A stretch of 9,788 bases of DNA from a virus (taxonomy: Duplodnaviria; Heunggongvirae; Uroviricota; Caudoviricetes), in the IMG/VR virus record IMGVR_UViG_2703718846_000007, positions 1 through 9,788 of that record. The stretch is one strand, 5' to 3'. How positions within the stretch are numbered: position 1 is the first letter of the stretch; the number at the start of each line of letters is the position of its first letter. The position numbers and the translations under genes were made by a program. The notes beneath the pieces are model-generated. The model was not told where the DNA came from. It searched no databases and saw nothing but the letters and a program-made list of their open reading frames with translations. Of the stretch, positions 2,597 to 9,788 are shown in pieces.

Positions 2597-3244
2597 ATGA
2601 TGGAAAGCCTTGGCATCAGGCTAAAGAGACTCAGAAAAGATAAGGGACTAACCCAAGTAGAACTGGGTAAGCTTTCAGGTGTAACTGGAGTTACTGTAGG
2701 GTACTGGGAGAAGGATCTAAACGAACCTGGTAGTAAAGCTCTAAGTAAATTAGCCCAGGCATTAGGAACTACTGAGTCCTACCTCCTGTATGGAGTATCG
2801 TCTCCTGAATCATCTTTTATGCAGATCAATCCAGGCTCTCAGATCCCCTATTTTTCTTGGGGTGACGCGATTTCTTTCCTAATTTTAGAAGGAGAGAAAG
2901 CTATGGGAAATGTCGATAGGATCACCACATTCTTTGATGTCGAGGAAGGTGATTTTGCCGTTTCAATGCCTGATGACACTATGCATAACCCAACTGGGTC
3001 GCCGAGCATCCCAGTTGGTGCCACAGTGATCCTAAGGCCTAGAGAAAGTTATAAAAATGGTAGCATCGTCGCTGTAATAGTTCCGGATCCGCTTACAAAT
3101 GAACCATCTATGACTATAAAAAAATTAGTTATTGATGGAAAGCTTGCGTACTTAAGCCCTCTTAATCCACGCTATCAATCATCTTTGCTTACACCAGAGT
3201 GTAAAATTGTTGCCGTAGCAAAAGGCGTACAGTTCAACTTATAG
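2597..3244 (+). CDS. cI: CI-like phage repressor with N-terminal HTH and C-terminal S24 (LexA-like) autopeptidase domain
   Basis: 215-aa ORF with GGGAG upstream. N-terminal HTH LTQVELGKLSGVTGVTVGYWE; C-terminal motifs AVSMPDD (catalytic Ser), TIKKLV (catalytic Lys) and LSPLNPRY align with lambda CI GNSM, TFKKLI and LQPLNPQY. Confidence 0.9.
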   Translation: MMESLGIRLKRLRKDKGLTQVELGKLSGVTGVTVGYWEKDLNEPGSKALSKLAQALGTTESYLLYGVSSPESSFMQINPGSQIPYFSWGDAISFLILEGEKAMGNVDRITTFFDVEEGDFAVSMPDDTMHNPTGSPSIPVGATVILRPRESYKNGSIVAVIVPDPLTNEPSMTIKKLVIDGKLAYLSPLNPRYQSSLLTPECKIVAVAKGVQFNL

Positions 3245-3266: not shown

Positions 3267-3292
3267 AGGTCGGCAATGCCGACCTTTTTTTT
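3267..3292 (+). terminator. Rho-independent terminator downstream of the repressor gene
   Basis: Hairpin GGTCGGC-AAT-GCCGACC at 3268-3284 followed by eight T at 3285-3292, 23 nt after the cI stop. Confidence 0.75.
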
Positions 3293-3312
3293 AAATTATT
3301 TTAGATTTTCGC

Positions 3313-3341
3313 TTGACTAAAAAACTAAATACTTTTAGATT
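3313..3341 (+). promoter_or_regulatory. pL-like sigma70 promoter for the early-left operon
   Basis: TTGACT (3313-3318), 17-bp spacer, TAGATT (3336-3341). Flanked by two copies of TTTTAGATTT (3299-3308 and 3333-3342), the same half-site motif seen in the cI/cro intergenic region. Confidence 0.5.
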
Positions 3342-3515
3342 TATCACATACCCAACCCGCCCCACAGAATGCAGGGCAATACTTCGAGTTACCAGGCAGT
3401 GGTCAGGGGTTAAGTAGCCAGCCCGAGGCGTAAGAACATGACGGCAGGGTTCAACTTTAACTATGCAGCAGGTTTTTGTTCCGCCACCCCGGCGTTAAAG
3501 GGAAATGAGGTCAGC

Positions 3516-3668
3516 ATGGATACTATCGATCTTGGCAACAACGAATCTCTGGTATACGGCGTGTTTCCAAACCAGGACGGTACGTTCACCGCGATGACGT
3601 ATACCAAAAGCAAAACGTTTAAAACCGAAGCTGGCGCGCGTCGCTGGTTAGCCAGAAATACTGACTGA
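3516..3668 (+). CDS. Small early protein (50 aa), YdaF-like / DUF1391-like
   Basis: ATG 3516 with GAGG 5 nt upstream; TGA stop at 3666-3668. The ORF-track frame extends upstream to 3438 but that start is less well supported. Family assignment is from memory only. Confidence 0.55.
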   Translation: MDTIDLGNNESLVYGVFPNQDGTFTAMTYTKSKTFKTEAGARRWLARNTD

Positions 3669-3679
3669 TGAGGTTAACG

Positions 3680-4315
3680 ATGGAATTTAAAGATTTACCG
3701 CTATCAATCCAGGAGATTGCAGCACACACACTACGTCAACGTCTGAACGAAGCTATGGCTGAATCTGCAACGAAAGAAACCATTGATAACATGGCTCGTA
3801 ATGTGCACGATGCGTTTACCGGATTGTATTTCTGTGCGTCTGTAAATAAACACGACCCAGAGAGTGTGGCAAAGAAAATTGCAGAAACGACAGTGCAAAA
3901 CATCAATACGAAACCAACCGAAGACGAAATTGACCAGCCTGCCAGTGAACAAAAGAAAGAAAAATCGCCATATGCGGGGAACATGTTTGTTTATGACAAA
4001 CTTATCCGAATTCGTGGCGAAATTCCGACTGAATACCTGGCAAAAATTCACCAGGCATTACTTAAAAATCTGGAAACGGAAGTATTTGATGGCAACACCA
4101 ACGGCTCCTTCGTGGTGTCAGCCCTCACAAAAGAGTGGGATACAGATAATCGCCGGAATGTTGCTACATGGTTATTCAGCAACAAAGCTGCTGCCCTGGA
4201 AGCTGCGGCCTGTATTTGCGACCTGCTAAGGACAGACCGCAAATACAACCTGGATGTGTATAGCTATATTTATGCTGAACACTATCCACTCTGGATTGAC
4301 TGGTTTAAAGGGTAA
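3680..4315 (+). CDS. Hypothetical early protein (211 aa), function unknown
   Basis: ORF-track frame 3668..4315. ATG 3680 has GAGG 6 nt upstream; the alternative ATG 3668 overlaps the preceding stop (TGATG). Soluble, non-repetitive protein; no motif recognised. Confidence 0.7.
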   Translation: MEFKDLPLSIQEIAAHTLRQRLNEAMAESATKETIDNMARNVHDAFTGLYFCASVNKHDPESVAKKIAETTVQNINTKPTEDEIDQPASEQKKEKSPYAGNMFVYDKLIRIRGEIPTEYLAKIHQALLKNLETEVFDGNTNGSFVVSALTKEWDTDNRRNVATWLFSNKAAALEAAACICDLLRTDRKYNLDVYSYIYAEHYPLWIDWFKG

Positions 4316-4412
4316 CACCTGCGGGACCGAGCCGACCAGCACCACGATTATTTTATCCTCCATTAAGGGGTGAATTAAAAATGGAGACCAACACGCTGCT
4401 ACGTGTGGTCGT

Positions 4413-4452
4413 GCGCCGGACACGGATAACCTTCCGGCATGCTCTTTAACAA
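4413..4452 (+). promoter_or_regulatory. Candidate processive-antitermination site: hairpin followed by an rrn-type boxA (TGCTCTTTAACAA)
   Basis: Exact 13-mer TGCTCTTTAACAA at 4440-4452 on the plus strand, preceded by hairpin GCCGGA-N12-TCCGGC at 4415-4438. Orientation matches pL-directed transcription. Confidence 0.4.
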
Positions 4453-4477
4453 TCTGGATATCCACAACAGCAATAAC

Positions 4478-4996
4478 CTACGGATTGCTGCTCAATGCTC
4501 TACCTATCTCTTCTTCAGATGGGGGCGGTATATAGTCATCATTGCGTTCAAATTTAAAGCGCGAATCACATTTCAGGCATTTAGAAATATGGAACTTATC
4601 ATGCTCACCAATTTCAACAGGTTGAAGTATTGCTATTACACCATGCTGATAGCAATTGGGACAGGCATAGTGAAAACATGTGTCTTCTTCGTCGAGGCTG
4701 TTCCTGAAAGCATAGACAAAATGCCCAAAACCAGTTTTGTGTATCGTATAGCATTCAAGTTTTCGATTACGCTCGTCAATTTCATGACATTTTTGCTTAA
4801 GCAAGAGTATTTCCTCGTACTGAAGCGCGAGCGTTTTCGCTAGCTCTGCGTTCTGTATTTGTAAGTCTGCCAGTTGGCGACGCATTTCGTAGACAGCCTT
4901 TTCACGTTCAGATTGGCTTTTTGCATCAAGTATTACCTGTAATAAATCAATCGAGACTTTAATTGCCGTTATTGATGAAGTTATTCCAGATAGCAT
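4478..4996 (-). CDS. Hypothetical coiled-coil plus zinc-ribbon protein (172 aa) on an antisense-oriented AT-rich insert
   Basis: ORF-track frame 4478..5113, trimmed to ATG 4994-4996 because a perfect TATAAT lies about 32 nt upstream. N-terminal heptad-like region RRQLADLQIQNAELAKTLALQYEEILLLKQK; C-terminal CPNC...CLKC cysteine pairs. GC is visibly lower than in the flanks. Confidence 0.65.
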   Translation of the reverse strand: MLSGITSSITAIKVSIDLLQVILDAKSQSEREKAVYEMRRQLADLQIQNAELAKTLALQYEEILLLKQKCHEIDERNRKLECYTIHKTGFGHFVYAFRNSLDEEDTCFHYACPNCYQHGVIAILQPVEIGEHDKFHISKCLKCDSRFKFERNDDYIPPPSEEEIGRALSSNP

Positions 4997-5007
4997 TCTT
5001 AACTCTC

Positions 5008-5060
5008 TGTGTTGTTGGGGTATCCGGATTATACAAATTTCTTGTTGTTGGGGAACAACA
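5008..5060 (-). promoter_or_regulatory. Promoter and candidate operators for the antisense gene
   Basis: Minus-strand TATAAT (plus 5028-5033). Two copies of TGTTGTTGGGG (plus 5010-5020 and 5043-5053); the second forms a perfect palindrome TGTTGTT-GGGG-AACAACA (5043-5060) over the -35 region. Confidence 0.5.
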
Positions 5061-5313
5061 GGAACCACCTCGCCTGATGTGGTTAAAAGCAGGCACACAA
5101 CACGAAAGCGCACGGCGAAGGTTTCTTTTCCTTAGAAGGCTTGTCGTTAGATTTCTTCGACCGTGCGCTTCCGGTTGTGGCAATCCGCGAAATGGCGCGG
5201 CGGTAAGTATGGCGGGGTTATCCTTACCCCCACTGGTAGCACCGGGTTGTCAGGTTGACCATACGCTTAAGTGACAACCCCGCTACAACACTCCATGTTG
5301 AGTATTGACCTTT

Positions 5314-5550: not shown

Positions 5551-5739
5551 ATGGAAACGTTATTACTCAATTCCACTACGCCTGAGACTCGTTTTGAAAT
5601 TGGCGTTATCACTGGCGATAAAAACTTTATTGAAGATGCCATTAATCAGATAAAGCATGAGCCAGATTCATCAAATGAGATATGCATTGCTTCAATGCTG
5701 GCCCGTTTACGCCCGACGCAAAAAGGATGCTGGCAATGA
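5551..5739 (+). CDS. Hypothetical small protein (62 aa)
   Basis: ATG 5551 with GAGGA 7 nt upstream; stop TGA 5737-5739 overlaps the next start. The ORF-track frame begins at 5416 but upstream in-frame starts lack a Shine-Dalgarno and use rare codons. Confidence 0.45.
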   Translation: METLLLNSTTPETRFEIGVITGDKNFIEDAINQIKHEPDSSNEICIASMLARLRPTQKGCWQ

Positions 5740-5939
5740 ATACCACATTTGCACTTGTTCTGACGGTTTTTCTTGTTTCCGGTGAACCAGTTGACATGGT
5801 TATTGGCGTATACAGCTCAATGAAAGAATGCATGGCTGCCGCAGATGAACAGAAAATTCCCGGTAACTGTTATCCGGTCGATAAAGTTATTCACCAGGAT
5901 AATAACGAAATCCCGGCAGGACTTAAAACAGCGCCGTAA
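5736..5939 (+). CDS. Hypothetical small protein (67 aa) with an N-terminal hydrophobic segment
   Basis: ATG 5736 overlaps the upstream stop (ATGA), with AAGGA 8 nt upstream. N-terminus MNTTFALVLTVFLVSG looks like a signal peptide or transmembrane helix. The ORF-track frame starts at 5682. Confidence 0.5.
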   Translation: MNTTFALVLTVFLVSGEPVDMVIGVYSSMKECMAAADEQKIPGNCYPVDKVIHQDNNEIPAGLKTAP

Positions 5940-6016: not shown

Positions 6017-8482
6017 ATGAGCACTGATAAAGAAGAATTTGCATTATATTGTGAAGCAAAAAATGACAAAGTCAGAAAACGCCTTGGAATTAAAGGTGGT
6101 TTTTACTGGACTACAGCAAAAAAATTATCTGTTGCCATCTCCCGCTGCATTACCGCAATGGATGACAACGATTATGATGAAGACGACTTTAAAAAACCCG
6201 TCCGCGTCCATTTACCCGTTGTGAATGACCTTCCACCTGAAGGCGTGTTTGATACTGAATTCTGTAACCGTTACGAAAAAGGCGGGGAAGATGGCATCAC
6301 AATGGTATTTATCGCGCCCTCACCCTCTGCGCAGGACAAACCAGCCAACACTGACAATACCAACGTCAACGGCGAAGACATGACTGAGATTGAGGAGAAC
6401 ATGCTCCTGCCGGTTTCAGGTCAGATTCTGCCTGTTCGATGGCTGGCACAGCACGGCAGCGAAAAACCGATCACACACGTTTCGCGGGACGAACTGCGCG
6501 CATTACATAACGCACAGGATGAAAAACTTCCCGCCGTTACCGCGCTGGCTATCTCAAATAAAGCAGCGCAACTCGAACCGCTGGAGATTCGCGATCTCCA
6601 CAAACTGGTGCGAGACACTGACAAAGTTTTCCCCGCCCCCGTAAATTCGGACCTGGGACTGATAACTTCTTTTATCGAAGCATACCTGGACGCCGACTAC
6701 ACCGATCGCGGTCTGCTGACAAAAGAGTGGATGAAAGGAAATCGTGTTTCGCGTATCACCCGTACGGCTTCCGGTGCAAATGCCGGTGGCGGGAACAAAA
6801 CCGATCGCAATCCGAATTTAGTACACACCTTCGATACGCTGGATGTGGAGACTGCAGCAGCCACACTTCCGATGGATTTTAATATTTATGAAATTCCGGG
6901 TAGCGTTTATCGTCGCGCAAAAGAAATCGTCCTGAAAAGAGAAAGTCCGTTCAAAGAATGGTCCGCAGCACTTCGCGCAACCCCGGGTATTCTGGATTAT
7001 TCCCGCGCCGCTATTTTTGCACTTATCCGGAGCGCTCACCCTGAGTTTTATCACTACCCGGGACGCCTTCAGGGGTATATCAACGCCCACTTAACGGAGA
7101 CTGATCACGAGAACCCCAGCAAGGAAACTCTCACTGCTGCACGACATACACCGGAAAAAGATATCCTGGAAGAAGTTAACCGCGAACTGGCTGCTGAACG
7201 CGAAACAGAAGAAGAAAAAAATAATGAGGAAAAATCACAACCGTCTGACGCAATGGCAGATGAACAGGCAACGGCCGAAGCAATGGAGCCGGATACAACT
7301 GAACATCACCAGGACACGCAATCGCTGGATACTCAGGAACAGGTAGATCCAGTTAAACAGGTAAAAGTTACCGCTGACGAAGTAAACAAAATTATGCAGG
7401 CAGCCAATATCAACCAGCCTGATGCCGACAAAATACTGGCAGTCCATCGCGGTGAGTTCGTTGACGGAATTAGCGACCCGAATGATCCGAAATGGGTTAA
7501 GGGGATTGAAACCCGCGATTCTGTGAACCAGAACCTGCCCGAATCGGAACAAAACGACCAGAAAGCGGAACAGAACAGCCCAAATACGTTACAAAACGAG
7601 CCAGAAACGAAACAGCCTGAACCAGAAGAGCAACAAGAACCGGAAAAAGTCTGCACCGCCTGCGGTCAGAGCGGTGGCGGCAACTGCCCTGATTGTGGCG
7701 CGGTGATGGGCGACGCAACATACCAGGAAACATTCGATGAAGAGAATCAGGCTGAAACTCAGGAAAATGATCCGGAGGAAATGGAAGGCGCTGAACATCC
7801 GAACAATGAGAATGCTGGTAACGATCAGCATCACACCAGCGATAGTAAAACTGGCGAGGCGGCAGATCCCTTAATTACGGTGAACAGTCATCACATTATC
7901 ACATCCACCAGCAGGGTATGGCACCATCTGATGATCGACCTTGAAACGATGGGAATTAACAGCAATGCGCCCATCGTAGTTATTGCTGCAGTGTTTTTCG
8001 ATCCGCAGACCGGGGAAATCGGACCGATATTTTATGTTGTCATCAGTCTGGTTGACGCAATGGACAAAGGTGCTACTCCCGATGGTGACGTAATCGAATG
8101 GTGGCTGGCGCAGTCCAGCGAGGCCAGATCTGCAATATTGGTAAATCAAATTCCGTTAGATGATGCACTATTGCAATTGCGGGAATTTATCGACGAAAAC
8201 TCCGGTGAATTTTTTGTTCGGGTCTGGGGAAATGGAGCCAGCTTCGACAACGTGATTTTACGCCGTTCATATGAACGGCAGGGTATCCCCTGCCCGTGGC
8301 GTTACTGCAACGATCGCGATGTGCGCACAATCGTTGATCTGGGAAAAGCCATAGACTTCGATGCCAGAACAGCTATTCCGTTCGAAGGCGTACGCCATAA
8401 TGCACTGGATGATGCCCGCCACCAGGCAAAACAAGTTTCAGCTATCTGGCAAAAACTGATCCCGAGTCAGGTTGATTTTTAA
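6017..8482 (+). CDS. Large prophage exonuclease (821 aa): RecE/exodeoxyribonuclease VIII-like N-terminal region, acidic low-complexity linker, CxxC-x9-CxxC zinc ribbon, C-terminal DEDDh-type 3'-5' exonuclease domain
   Basis: ATG 6017 with GAGG 7 nt upstream. C-terminal about 196 aa (nt 7892-8479) carry DEDDh motifs MIDLET, GNGASFD and HNALDD. Zinc ribbon CTACGQSGGGNCPDCG near nt 7651-7700. N-terminal segments (NTNVNGEDMTEIEENMLLP..., DYTDRGLLTKEWMKGNRVS...) resemble enterobacterial exonuclease VIII proteins as I recall them. Confidence 0.85.
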   Translation: MSTDKEEFALYCEAKNDKVRKRLGIKGGFYWTTAKKLSVAISRCITAMDDNDYDEDDFKKPVRVHLPVVNDLPPEGVFDTEFCNRYEKGGEDGITMVFIAPSPSAQDKPANTDNTNVNGEDMTEIEENMLLPVSGQILPVRWLAQHGSEKPITHVSRDELRALHNAQDEKLPAVTALAISNKAAQLEPLEIRDLHKLVRDTDKVFPAPVNSDLGLITSFIEAYLDADYTDRGLLTKEWMKGNRVSRITRTASGANAGGGNKTDRNPNLVHTFDTLDVETAAATLPMDFNIYEIPGSVYRRAKEIVLKRESPFKEWSAALRATPGILDYSRAAIFALIRSAHPEFYHYPGRLQGYINAHLTETDHENPSKETLTAARHTPEKDILEEVNRELAAERETEEEKNNEEKSQPSDAMADEQATAEAMEPDTTEHHQDTQSLDTQEQVDPVKQVKVTADEVNKIMQAANINQPDADKILAVHRGEFVDGISDPNDPKWVKGIETRDSVNQNLPESEQNDQKAEQNSPNTLQNEPETKQPEPEEQQEPEKVCTACGQSGGGNCPDCGAVMGDATYQETFDEENQAETQENDPEEMEGAEHPNNENAGNDQHHTSDSKTGEAADPLITVNSHHIITSTSRVWHHLMIDLETMGINSNAPIVVIAAVFFDPQTGEIGPIFYVVISLVDAMDKGATPDGDVIEWWLAQSSEARSAILVNQIPLDDALLQLREFIDENSGEFFVRVWGNGASFDNVILRRSYERQGIPCPWRYCNDRDVRTIVDLGKAIDFDARTAIPFEGVRHNALDDARHQAKQVSAIWQKLIPSQVDF

Positions 8483-8548: not shown

Positions 8549-8800
8549 ATGTACGAATTAACTCTATCGCCAGCAGAGATTCAAGAGATCACGAGATACG
8601 AGCGATACACAAGACAGCAACACCAGTTAAGGCTGCACGGAATTCCATTTGTAACCGGACCTAAAAATGAACCAATAGTTCTTCGCAAGGACGTTCCGCT
8701 AGGGCTGACATCGATACCGGATGCATCTGAACTGGTTTCTGCCGAACCTGATTTTGAGGCACTAAATAATGGGAAGACCAAGAATAAACAAAAAAGATAA
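8549..8800 (+). CDS. Putative excisionase / recombination directionality factor
   Basis: 83-aa ORF immediately upstream of int, overlapping it by 32 nt, as lambda xis overlaps int. No sequence similarity to lambda Xis recognised, so the call is positional. Confidence 0.45.
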   Translation: MYELTLSPAEIQEITRYERYTRQQHQLRLHGIPFVTGPKNEPIVLRKDVPLGLTSIPDASELVSAEPDFEALNNGKTKNKQKR

Positions 8801-9788
8801 TGTACTGCCACCACGGGTTAGATCGAATGGTTACAGTTACGTATGGAAACCCAAAGGAAGCACGAGAACGATAAGGCTCGGAAGGGTGCGGGAAACCAGC
8901 GTGGCTAAAGTCTGGCAAAATTATGAACTGGAAAAGGCAAAACTCCACGACATAATGACCGTCGCTAAATTATGGCACATGTTTATGGACTCCCCTGCAT
9001 TTACAGAATTGGCACCCCGAACTCAAAAAGATTATCGACAACATCAAAGGGCGTTGCTGGCGGTATTCGGAAAAGTGCTTGCTGATAATGTAAAAATTGA
9101 GCAGGTAAGAATTTTCATGGATAAACGGGGGCTTGAGAGCAAGACCCAGGCAAATCATGAACTGGCAAGTCTGAGTCGCGTATATGGATGGGGGTATGAG
9201 CGTGGGTATGTGAAAAATAATCCATGCAAAGGAGTCAGAAAATTCACGCTTAAAGCCCGTACTGTTTACATCACCGATGAACAGTATGCTGCGATATATG
9301 CGGAAGCAATTCCACAGTTACGTATTGCAATGGAGATATCCTATCTTTGTGCGGCAAGGCTCGGTGATGTACTCGAGCTGAAATGGCAGGATATTATGGA
9401 TAAAGGGATTTACATTGAGCAAAACAAGACCGGCACTAAACAAATCAAGGAATGGTCTCCGCGATTACGCACAGTGATCCAATTAGCCCGAAATGTATCT
9501 TCCGGCACATGCGAGTATGTGATCAACACAACCAAAGGCGGGAAGGTCATAGCTAAAACGCTGAACAACTGGTGGAATCAGGCTAAACGTGCAGCCGAGC
9601 AAAAAGCCGACGTTCCGTTTGGGTGCAACTTCCATGACATAAAAGCCAAAGGGATTTCAGATTACGAAGGCAGCAGCCGCGACAAACAAATTTTCAGTGG
9701 GCACAAAACAGAAAATCAGGTGTTGATTTATGATCGCAAAACAAAAATCACGCCAACACTGGATCTACCTCTTGTGGTCAGTAAGTAA
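8769..9788 (+). CDS. int: Tyrosine recombinase, lambda-family phage integrase
   Basis: 339-aa ORF with GAGG 9 nt upstream and TAA stop at 9786-9788. The catalytic region aligns to lambda Int: RLGDVLELKW (Arg-I), YIEQNKTGTK (Lys), FHDIK (His), GHK (His) and LIYDRK (Tyr). The N-terminus is basic like the arm-binding domain. Confidence 0.9.
   Translation: MGRPRINKKDNVLPPRVRSNGYSYVWKPKGSTRTIRLGRVRETSVAKVWQNYELEKAKLHDIMTVAKLWHMFMDSPAFTELAPRTQKDYRQHQRALLAVFGKVLADNVKIEQVRIFMDKRGLESKTQANHELASLSRVYGWGYERGYVKNNPCKGVRKFTLKARTVYITDEQYAAIYAEAIPQLRIAMEISYLCAARLGDVLELKWQDIMDKGIYIEQNKTGTKQIKEWSPRLRTVIQLARNVSSGTCEYVINTTKGGKVIAKTLNNWWNQAKRAAEQKADVPFGCNFHDIKAKGISDYEGSSRDKQIFSGHKTENQVLIYDRKTKITPTLDLPLVVSK

Follow-up and report, generated by a model that had tools for sequence, protein, structure and literature searches.

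We report that a gene in the early region of a lambdoid prophage encodes an exonuclease in which the N-terminal module of RecE, known from the Rac prophage of Escherichia coli K-12, is joined to a nuclease of the type of DexA from bacteriophage T4. The gene is located at 6017-8482 (+ strand, stop codon included) in a stretch of 9,788 nucleotides, IMG/VR virus record IMGVR_UViG_2703718846_000007, which was analysed at its full length and is referred to as the window; it codes for a protein of 821 residues. We are highly confident of the identity of both parts and of this architecture. The protein lacks two features that define RecE (exonuclease VIII), namely its nuclease domain and its partner RecT, and its sequence assigns it to the DexA/Rv2179c family of DEDDh exonucleases.

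Exchange of the nuclease behind the RecE N-terminal module

The open reading frame (ORF) is uninterrupted and starts with ATG, with a GAGG Shine-Dalgarno sequence 7 nt 5' of the start codon, and the identical 821-residue protein is encoded on 7 NCBI E. coli contigs. A first-pass annotation of this DNA, made from the sequence alone, had described an exonuclease composed of a RecE-like N-terminal region, a zinc ribbon and a DEDDh domain with three motifs. The reading frame was found intact with all three motifs in place, and the domain search that we ran recognized its two end regions by separate Pfam families, PF06630 (Exonuc_VIII) at residues 57-189 (6185-6583, + strand, E 3.4e-28) and PF16473 (Rv2179c-like/T4 DexA family) at residues 636-811 (7922-8449, + strand). 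The latter match scores 221 bits (cut-off 27, E 1e-65) and covers profile positions 1-177 of 177.

The extent of the RecE-homologous region was determined by BLASTP against K-12 RecE, the reference sequence being taken from MG1655, and by the NCBIfam RecE profile. Residues 58-621 (6188-7879, +) align with RecE 50-592 at 56% identity over 564 residues. The RecE equivalog profile NF007259 aligned only with its positions 1-603 of 877 and scored 892 bits, below its cut-off of 1269, which bears out the suggestion that the protein differs from exonuclease VIII as characterised. The preceding segment of residues 1-57 (6017-6187, +; MSTDKEEFALYCEAK...) cannot be aligned to K-12 RecE and is common to other members of the family; residues 5-100 are predicted to form a small alpha/beta unit. 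The best-conserved block of the N-terminal module follows at residues 246-380 (6752-7156, +; RT..G.NAGGGN.TDR ... PGILDYSRAAIFALIR), where residues from about 270 to 380 are helical in the predicted structure with a predicted local distance difference test (pLDDT) value of mostly 78-91.

Between this block and the nuclease the protein possesses an acidic low-complexity linker (residues 381-540, 7157-7636, +) with 26% Asp and Glu, a Cys4 ribbon CTACGQSGGGNCPDC (residues 546-560, 7652-7696, +; C546, C549, C557 and C560) and a second acidic linker (residues 566-635, 7712-7921, +) with 24% Asp and Glu, which runs up to the cassette junction. The long acidic linker seen in the first pass is thus real, and so is the Cys4 motif, although its spacing is CxxC-x7-CxxC and not x9. 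The reading of the ribbon as a third component of the protein did not stand. K-12 RecE has its own CNACGQTGGDNCPDC and acidic tail within the aligned stretch, and nearly all relatives have such a ribbon too. Because ribbon and linker lie inside the RecE-homologous region, we regard them as parts of the RecE module and not as additions to it.

The homology to RecE stops at ADPLIT (residues 616-621, 7862-7879, +), the last residues shared with RecE, where they read ADPVIV (587-592). This is approximately 14 residues N-terminal of the crystallised nuclease domain of RecE, which we take to begin at residue 606. In K-12 RecE Pfam places the PD-(D/E)XK domain PF12684 at 615-850 (E 4e-28), while no match to this domain (PF12684/DUF3799) was found by Pfam in the 821-residue protein and a tblastn search of the window with the RecE C-terminal domain was negative. 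A review gives the nuclease domain of RecE as 564-866 and the InterPro range as 602-866 (PMC11611040). As the homology ends just before the start of the RecE nuclease, we interpret the border as a clean swap of the nuclease cassette: approximately 590 N-terminal residues, with their Cys4 ribbon and acidic linkers, are homologous between both proteins, and the PD-(D/E)XK 5'-3' nuclease of RecE (about 600-866, PF12684) is exchanged for a DEDDh domain. A processive 5'-3' exonuclease activity on double-stranded DNA of the K-12 type is unlikely for the 821-residue protein, because the domain responsible for it is missing.

The DEDDh domain contains the Exo I motif MIDLET (residues 639-644, 7931-7948, +) with the predicted catalytic residues D641 and E643, the Exo II motif GNGASFD (738-744, 8228-8248, +) with D744, and the Exo III motif HNALDD (794-799, 8396-8413, +) with H794 and D799, which gives the DEDDh subtype. 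All five residues are invariant in our alignment (A1), DexA included. T4 DexA, whose gene is annotated as a 3'-5' DNA exonuclease, is the only solved relative by sequence and the only match in the PDB at E<0.001 (PDB 8kel, phmmer E 7e-5); no chain named Rv2179c was among the PDB matches of either the single sequence (E<=0.01) or the profile (E<=1). The likeness to DexA (PDB 8kel/8ken) comprises the DEDDh family PF16473, the alignment of all catalytic residues and the fact that both are encoded by phages. The differences are considerable, as the identity amounts to 23%, DexA is a stand-alone protein of 227 residues with extra loops whereas the window protein carries a RecE-type module of 620 residues, and W152, D169 and S87 of DexA are not kept in the window protein.

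With 729 records, mostly stand-alone genes of about 190 codons, the domain family is widely distributed among phages. The stand-alone exonucleases of about 180-190 residues from lambdoid and SfV-like phages and from prophages of Salmonella, Citrobacter and Klebsiella are 60-79% identical to residues 636-821, and they differ from the window protein in that they lack the RecE-type N-terminal module.

We further compared 63 distinct intact genes pairwise (68 intact ORFs occur among the surveyed loci described below). The ratio of nonsynonymous to synonymous substitution rates (dN/dS) was 0.14 for residues 58-380 and 0.14 for the DEDDh domain (residues 636-821), and it was 0.31 and 0.50 for linker segments, with about 0.31 and hence relaxed constraint in the linker of residues 381-540. 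Both modules are under purifying selection.

Absence of an annealase and modularity of the gene

The exonuclease gene lies in the early-left operon before xis and int, in the slot of recE-recT or exo-bet. For Rac RecE this is the lambdoid position between kil/dicB-type genes and xis-int. The first-pass annotation had noticed this location as well as the lack of a neighbouring annealase gene, and we can support both statements. The window spans the whole early-left operon from cI to int, and none of its sizeable ORFs matched the RecT, Bet or Erf families in Pfam and PHROGs. In a further locus that is essentially the same prophage (L045), no annealase was found in 10 kb upstream, which reaches about 4 kb past the left end of the window. 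A related prophage (L001 and L131) could be followed through to its head genes, and RusA is present there with no annotated annealase.

To place these observations in the context of the family we surveyed related loci, 80 of them taken from IMG/VR and 11 from species-representative genomes; the survey is based on IMG/VR because a scan of species-dereplicated genomes yielded 11 loci only. Partner genes were searched for upstream of the exonuclease (median 8 kb) and downstream of it (at most 3 kb), and the queries were K-12 RecT, two divergent RecTs, Bet, Erf, Gam, lambda Exo, Abc1, Abc2 and a RecT profile. Homologues of RecT, Bet, Erf, Gam, lambda Exo, Abc1 or Abc2 occur in 0 out of 80 loci in which the RecE N-terminal module is combined with the DEDDh domain, the window being counted among the 80. 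Over the 3877 ORFs of these loci tblastn gave no match at E<=1e-3, and phmmer and the RecT profile gave none better than E 0.3. In contrast, in 11 out of 11 loci of the PD-(D/E)XK type the exonuclease gene is followed by a RecT-family gene whose start coincides or overlaps with the exonuclease stop codon. The lack of an annealase is a property of the whole DEDDh class.

Compared with the pairs lambda Exo-Bet, RecE-RecT and “SynExo”/EATR, the window gene shares the genomic slot and the presumed timing of expression; it differs in its opposite predicted polarity, in the nuclease superfamily and in having no annealase. A second gene follows the same division. The racC gene is located upstream in 10 out of 13 non-DEDDh loci (11 PD-(D/E)XK and 2 truncated; racC is present in L035-L039, L042, L116, L118, L119 and L121), but in only 2 out of 80 DEDDh loci (L077 and L101). 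In the DEDDh loci this place is taken by dicB and DUF1482.

The border at which the exchange took place is the same in all types. In an alignment across the junction the N-terminal module runs to ...TGE(A/V)ADP(L/V)I before every cassette, and three cassettes follow at this one position: the DEDDh domain, the K-12-type PD-(D/E)XK domain and a divergent DUF3799 PD-(D/E)XK domain found in proteins of 1035-1053 residues. One locus (L117) combines an N-terminal region 85% identical to that of the window (56% for K-12 RecE) with a K-12 nuclease (97%) and RecT (98%). N-terminal allele and nuclease cassette assort independently. The N-terminal family is small, with only 217 clusters at 50% identity among 1.84 billion proteins. 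Among its representatives of at least 450 residues, 26 carry a PD-(D/E)XK domain, 14 a DEDDh domain and 43 no further recognisable domain. No third nuclease type was detected in these 43 long representatives, for which Pfam showed PF06630 only, plus RecT in two. In the latter two the RecT domain is part of one polypeptide with the N-terminal region, and a nuclease could not be recognised; either a genuine fusion or a frameshift artefact may account for them.

Further exchange within the gene is indicated by the cassette alleles. The DEDDh cassette of the window (7922-8479) is a minority allele with 100% identity in two other loci only (L004 and L045). In most other full-length loci the cassette is 72-79% identical, whereas the N-terminal region reaches 81-97% in many of these. 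At the position of DexA W152, which is C764 in the window, other alleles that were checked have Trp (the stand-alone proteins P0089 and P0085) or Tyr (P0051). We take this as a sign that the gene is also mosaic internally and not at the RecE junction only.

Some loci of the survey deserve mention on their own. An 84%-identical copy of the gene next to a dicB homologue occurs in a metagenome-assembled genome labelled Veillonella parvula (L034, JAGZPX010000007.1), which is probably a binning contaminant. In E. coli ECMA0423 and Shigella flexneri SFBU1023 (L038 and L039, 10001-12811) the RecE-like N-terminal region ends at about residue 421 and is followed by a lambda Gam-like gene (81% identity), with no match to a nuclease or annealase; both look like degenerate or recombinant early regions.

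The gene order cI ... dicB - DUF1482 - exonuclease - xis - int is conserved in relatives. In the window the operon starts with a cI-type repressor gene (helix-turn-helix and S24 peptidase; 2597-3244, +). Upstream of the exonuclease lie a gene for a dicB-like cell-division inhibitor (PF05358; 5437-5739, +) and, directly adjacent, a DUF1482 (ydfD-like) gene (5736-5939, +). Directly downstream, after a gap of 66 nt, follows a DUF4224 excisionase-like gene (8549-8800, +) and then the gene for a tyrosine integrase (8769-9788, +), behind which the prophage ends and the host gene yccA begins. No terminator-like site was found in the gaps that flank the exonuclease gene. The host genes to the right of int are yccA-tusE-rlmI, and the prophage is lambdoid, Rac/Qin-like and integrated beside yccA.

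Two additional ORFs in this operon were noted. The one at 4478-5113 lies on the opposite strand (-) in a patch of low GC content (about 0.40) and codes for 211 residues with the pattern CPNC ... CLKC. It matches PHROG 1244 (unknown function) and neither Pfam nor PADLOC; its position is that of the sieB-type moron of lambda and Rac, and it may be expressed in the lysogen. The other (3668-4315, +; 215 residues) matches PHROG 2151, likewise of unknown function. Several further PHROGs match over its first approximately 60 residues, so that one N-terminal module seems to be combined with different C-termini.

Proposed mechanism and alternative explanations

The best explanation overall is that the gene encodes an early-operon 3'-5' DNA exonuclease which is positioned by the RecE module and works without a phage annealase. 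We put this forward tentatively, as it falls slightly short of an even chance. A 3'-5' DNase activity as such is probable: homology to DexA and the genomic context suggest DNA rather than RNA as the substrate and the opposite polarity to RecE. More tentative is the role in recombination or in the processing of DNA ends, which we favour among the possible functions.

Upon induction of the prophage the gene would be transcribed together with dicB, xis and int from the early-left promoter. The N-terminal module would contribute the positioning or scaffolding, of whatever kind, that it contributes in RecE, and the DEDDh domain would take nucleotides off DNA 3' ends by two-metal catalysis (D641, E643, D744, H794, D799). 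As no dedicated phage annealase would take part, the outcome would be trimmed 3' ends or 5' overhangs, and the latter might anneal unaided or with the help of host factors, as in the RecA-independent in vivo assembly that relies on host exonuclease III. A role in end processing is favoured for two reasons. The cassette replaces the RecE nuclease behind a module that is important for linear-linear recombination, in which full-length RecE is superior to the nuclease domain alone (PMC11611040). There is also a precedent for a lone 3'-5' exonuclease that supports RecA-independent joining, namely exonuclease III (XthA), which supports in vivo assembly in E. coli (PMC6379578). The analogy is functional only: XthA generates cohesive 5' overhangs and allows linear DNA to be joined without a phage annealase, yet it is a host enzyme of unrelated fold (AP-endonuclease family).

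Several points weigh against this explanation. Resection in the 3'-5' direction yields 5' overhangs, which are not a substrate of the canonical pathways of RecA or of single-strand annealing proteins. Rv2179c, the founding member of the family, is an exoribonuclease, and RNA could be the substrate here as well. The structural model of the N-terminal module (pLDDT 69) yielded no informative structural relative, and the timing of expression is deduced from gene order only. Finally, phage mEp460 (L129) carries in the same slot, immediately upstream of xis, a stand-alone nuclease of 190 residues (gp26). The nuclease is therefore able to function in the absence of the RecE module and may have a role unrelated to RecE-type recombination. 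Further products of the early-left operon of mEp460 (3273-5115) are a DUF2303 (YfdQ-like) protein and a deoxyribonucleoside 5'-monophosphate phosphatase, and the operon contains no annotated annealase.

The strongest of the alternatives is nucleotide salvage. According to it the enzyme would digest host DNA to mononucleotides in the manner of DexA during lytic growth and thereby feed phage replication, the RecE module serving only as a tether to DNA ends. The closest characterised relative, DexA, has a documented role in scavenging host DNA, the stand-alone homologue of mEp460 shares its operon with the phosphatase mentioned above, and the lack of an annealase would be expected. We nevertheless consider salvage rather unlikely. 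The identity to DexA is 23% only, we know of no temperate lambdoid phage that degrades the host chromosome, and the precise replacement of a cassette behind a conserved 620-residue module under purifying selection is left unexplained.

An anti-defence function, in which the nuclease would remove 3'-ended nucleic acids of host immunity such as retron multicopy single-stranded DNA (msDNA), DNA or RNA guides or signalling oligonucleotides, is less probable again. The position in the early operon suits a counter-defence gene, and the occurrence of several C-terminal alleles (72-79%) on similar N-terminal backbones (81-97% identity in most loci) would be in agreement with it. The evidence from RecE itself is divided: K-12 RecE degrades retron msDNA, which has been discussed as an anti-restriction function, but in the same work RecE triggers the retron rather than evading it (bioRxiv 10.1101/2020.06.22.160242). 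The distribution of racC, a reported RcaT blocker paired with recE, also argues against such a function, as racC accompanies 10 out of 13 non-DEDDh loci but only 2 out of 80 DEDDh loci.

Defence in the lysogen, which the first-pass annotation had raised, was considered in the form of superinfection exclusion by destruction of incoming modified phage DNA, e.g. that of T4 containing 5-hydroxymethylcytosine (5hmC). Kang et al. (NAR 2025, PMC12153337) report that EcD, a stand-alone DexA homologue of E. coli, cleaves DNA containing 5hmC and confers protection against T4 (“HREX”). We recovered an EcD-like ORF of 189 codons by means of a primer published by Kang et al.; it belongs to the same domain family as the window domain, occurs like it in enterobacterial genomes or prophages, and is 36% identical to it (E 1e-29). 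The proposed 5hmC-recognition residues W152 and D169 of DexA correspond to W132 and E145 in the EcD-like ORF and to C764 and K777 in the window protein, where this assignment depends on a DexA alignment at 23% identity with an indel near D169. The EcD-like ORF, itself stand-alone, thus keeps the proposed recognition Trp and Glu, while the window protein has neither. Furthermore, D716 aligns with D90 of DexA, the Asp involved in tetramer formation (A78 in EcD), whose loss defines the “dimer-only” state of EcD, and P713 aligns with DexA S87. An identity of the window gene with the EcD/HREX gene was rejected, the EcD-like ORF being a distant paralogue. Searches of PADLOC-DB v2 gave no match at E<=0.01 for the exonuclease or for four neighbouring ORFs, and the gene belongs to a repressed early-left operon and not to a moron position expressed in the lysogen. 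Despite the protection conferred by EcD we therefore regard this kind of defence as improbable, and the suggestion of a defence nuclease found no support.

An RNA exonuclease that trims 3' ends of phage or host transcripts or of small RNAs in the manner of Rv2179c would be in line with the name of the Pfam family, which refers to a 3'-5' exoribonuclease, and DEDDh enzymes often act on RNA. At the PDB threshold given above, however, the DNA enzyme DexA is the nearest protein by sequence, and the module that now precedes the domain serves DNA recombination in RecE, where a DNA nuclease stood in its place; we judge an RNA exonuclease to be very unlikely. That the gene is a non-functional relic, a recombination scar in defective prophages, is hardly credible in view of the 68 intact ORFs, the purifying selection on both modules with a dN/dS of about 0.14, the conservation of all catalytic residues and the occurrence of the gene in entries annotated as phages, namely Evi and vB_EcoS-640R1 (the latter an incomplete genome with host genes in the entry), even if many genome copies are split or truncated (a pseudogene plus an “exonuclease”) and the system is said to be intact in 1 out of 7 prophages of O157 Sakai (PMC2669165).

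Prevalence and meaning for the RecE family

The architecture is not unusual; the gene is among the commonest of E. coli prophages and is already annotated. Out of 5426 complete E. coli genomes, 1215 gave a megablast match over at least 80% of the gene. The DEDDh cassette by itself is matched at the DNA level in 4058 out of 5426 genomes at 8006 places, some of which are expected to represent stand-alone copies, and the K-12-type recE nuclease together with recT is found in 1750 out of 5426. The NCBI annotation pipeline PGAP names the products “exonuclease”, “3'-5' exonuclease” or “RecE family exodeoxyribonuclease”, and PHROGs contains full-length families. Such genes from seven prophages of O157 Sakai were counted as an “ExoVIII-type” general recombination system (Asadulghani et al. 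2009, PMC2669165). The sequence family is thus known and very common in E. coli prophages. A RecE lineage that has swapped its cassette, is predicted to have the opposite polarity and strictly lacks the annealase appears not to have been described. We found no functional study of this architecture in the literature covered, which lacks most subscription journals, so that the absence is no proof.

RecET is the workhorse of recombineering, and the 590-residue N-terminal region of RecE is shared with the DEDDh form. As this region precedes, at one and the same junction, either a 5'-3' PD-(D/E)XK nuclease, always with RecT, or a predicted 3'-5' DEDDh nuclease, never with RecT, it is not specific to 5' resection or to the loading of RecT. 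Being never accompanied by RecT, a RecE-like protein with a DEDDh domain should not be assumed to act like RecET. Thousands of annotations (“exodeoxyribonuclease VIII”, “RecE family”) and the inventories of “ExoVIII-type” prophage systems probably imply the wrong chemistry.

A wider interpretation, to which we give a small chance, is that the RecE N-terminal region may represent an autonomous, portable module that drives nucleases of opposite polarity. The DEDDh form would then be a separate, annealase-independent system of end processing, either for recombination via 5' overhangs or for the destruction of 3'-ended immune or competitor nucleic acids, which would be commoner in E. coli prophages than RecET and mis-filed as “exonuclease VIII”. 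If the protein is only a salvage nuclease, the value of the finding is limited to the correction of annotations. The pair of DEDDh and PD-(D/E)XK forms represents a natural swap experiment on the role of the RecE N-terminal region, and if joining of ends without an annealase or counter-defence is true, this might provide a useful tool or point to new phage-host biology.

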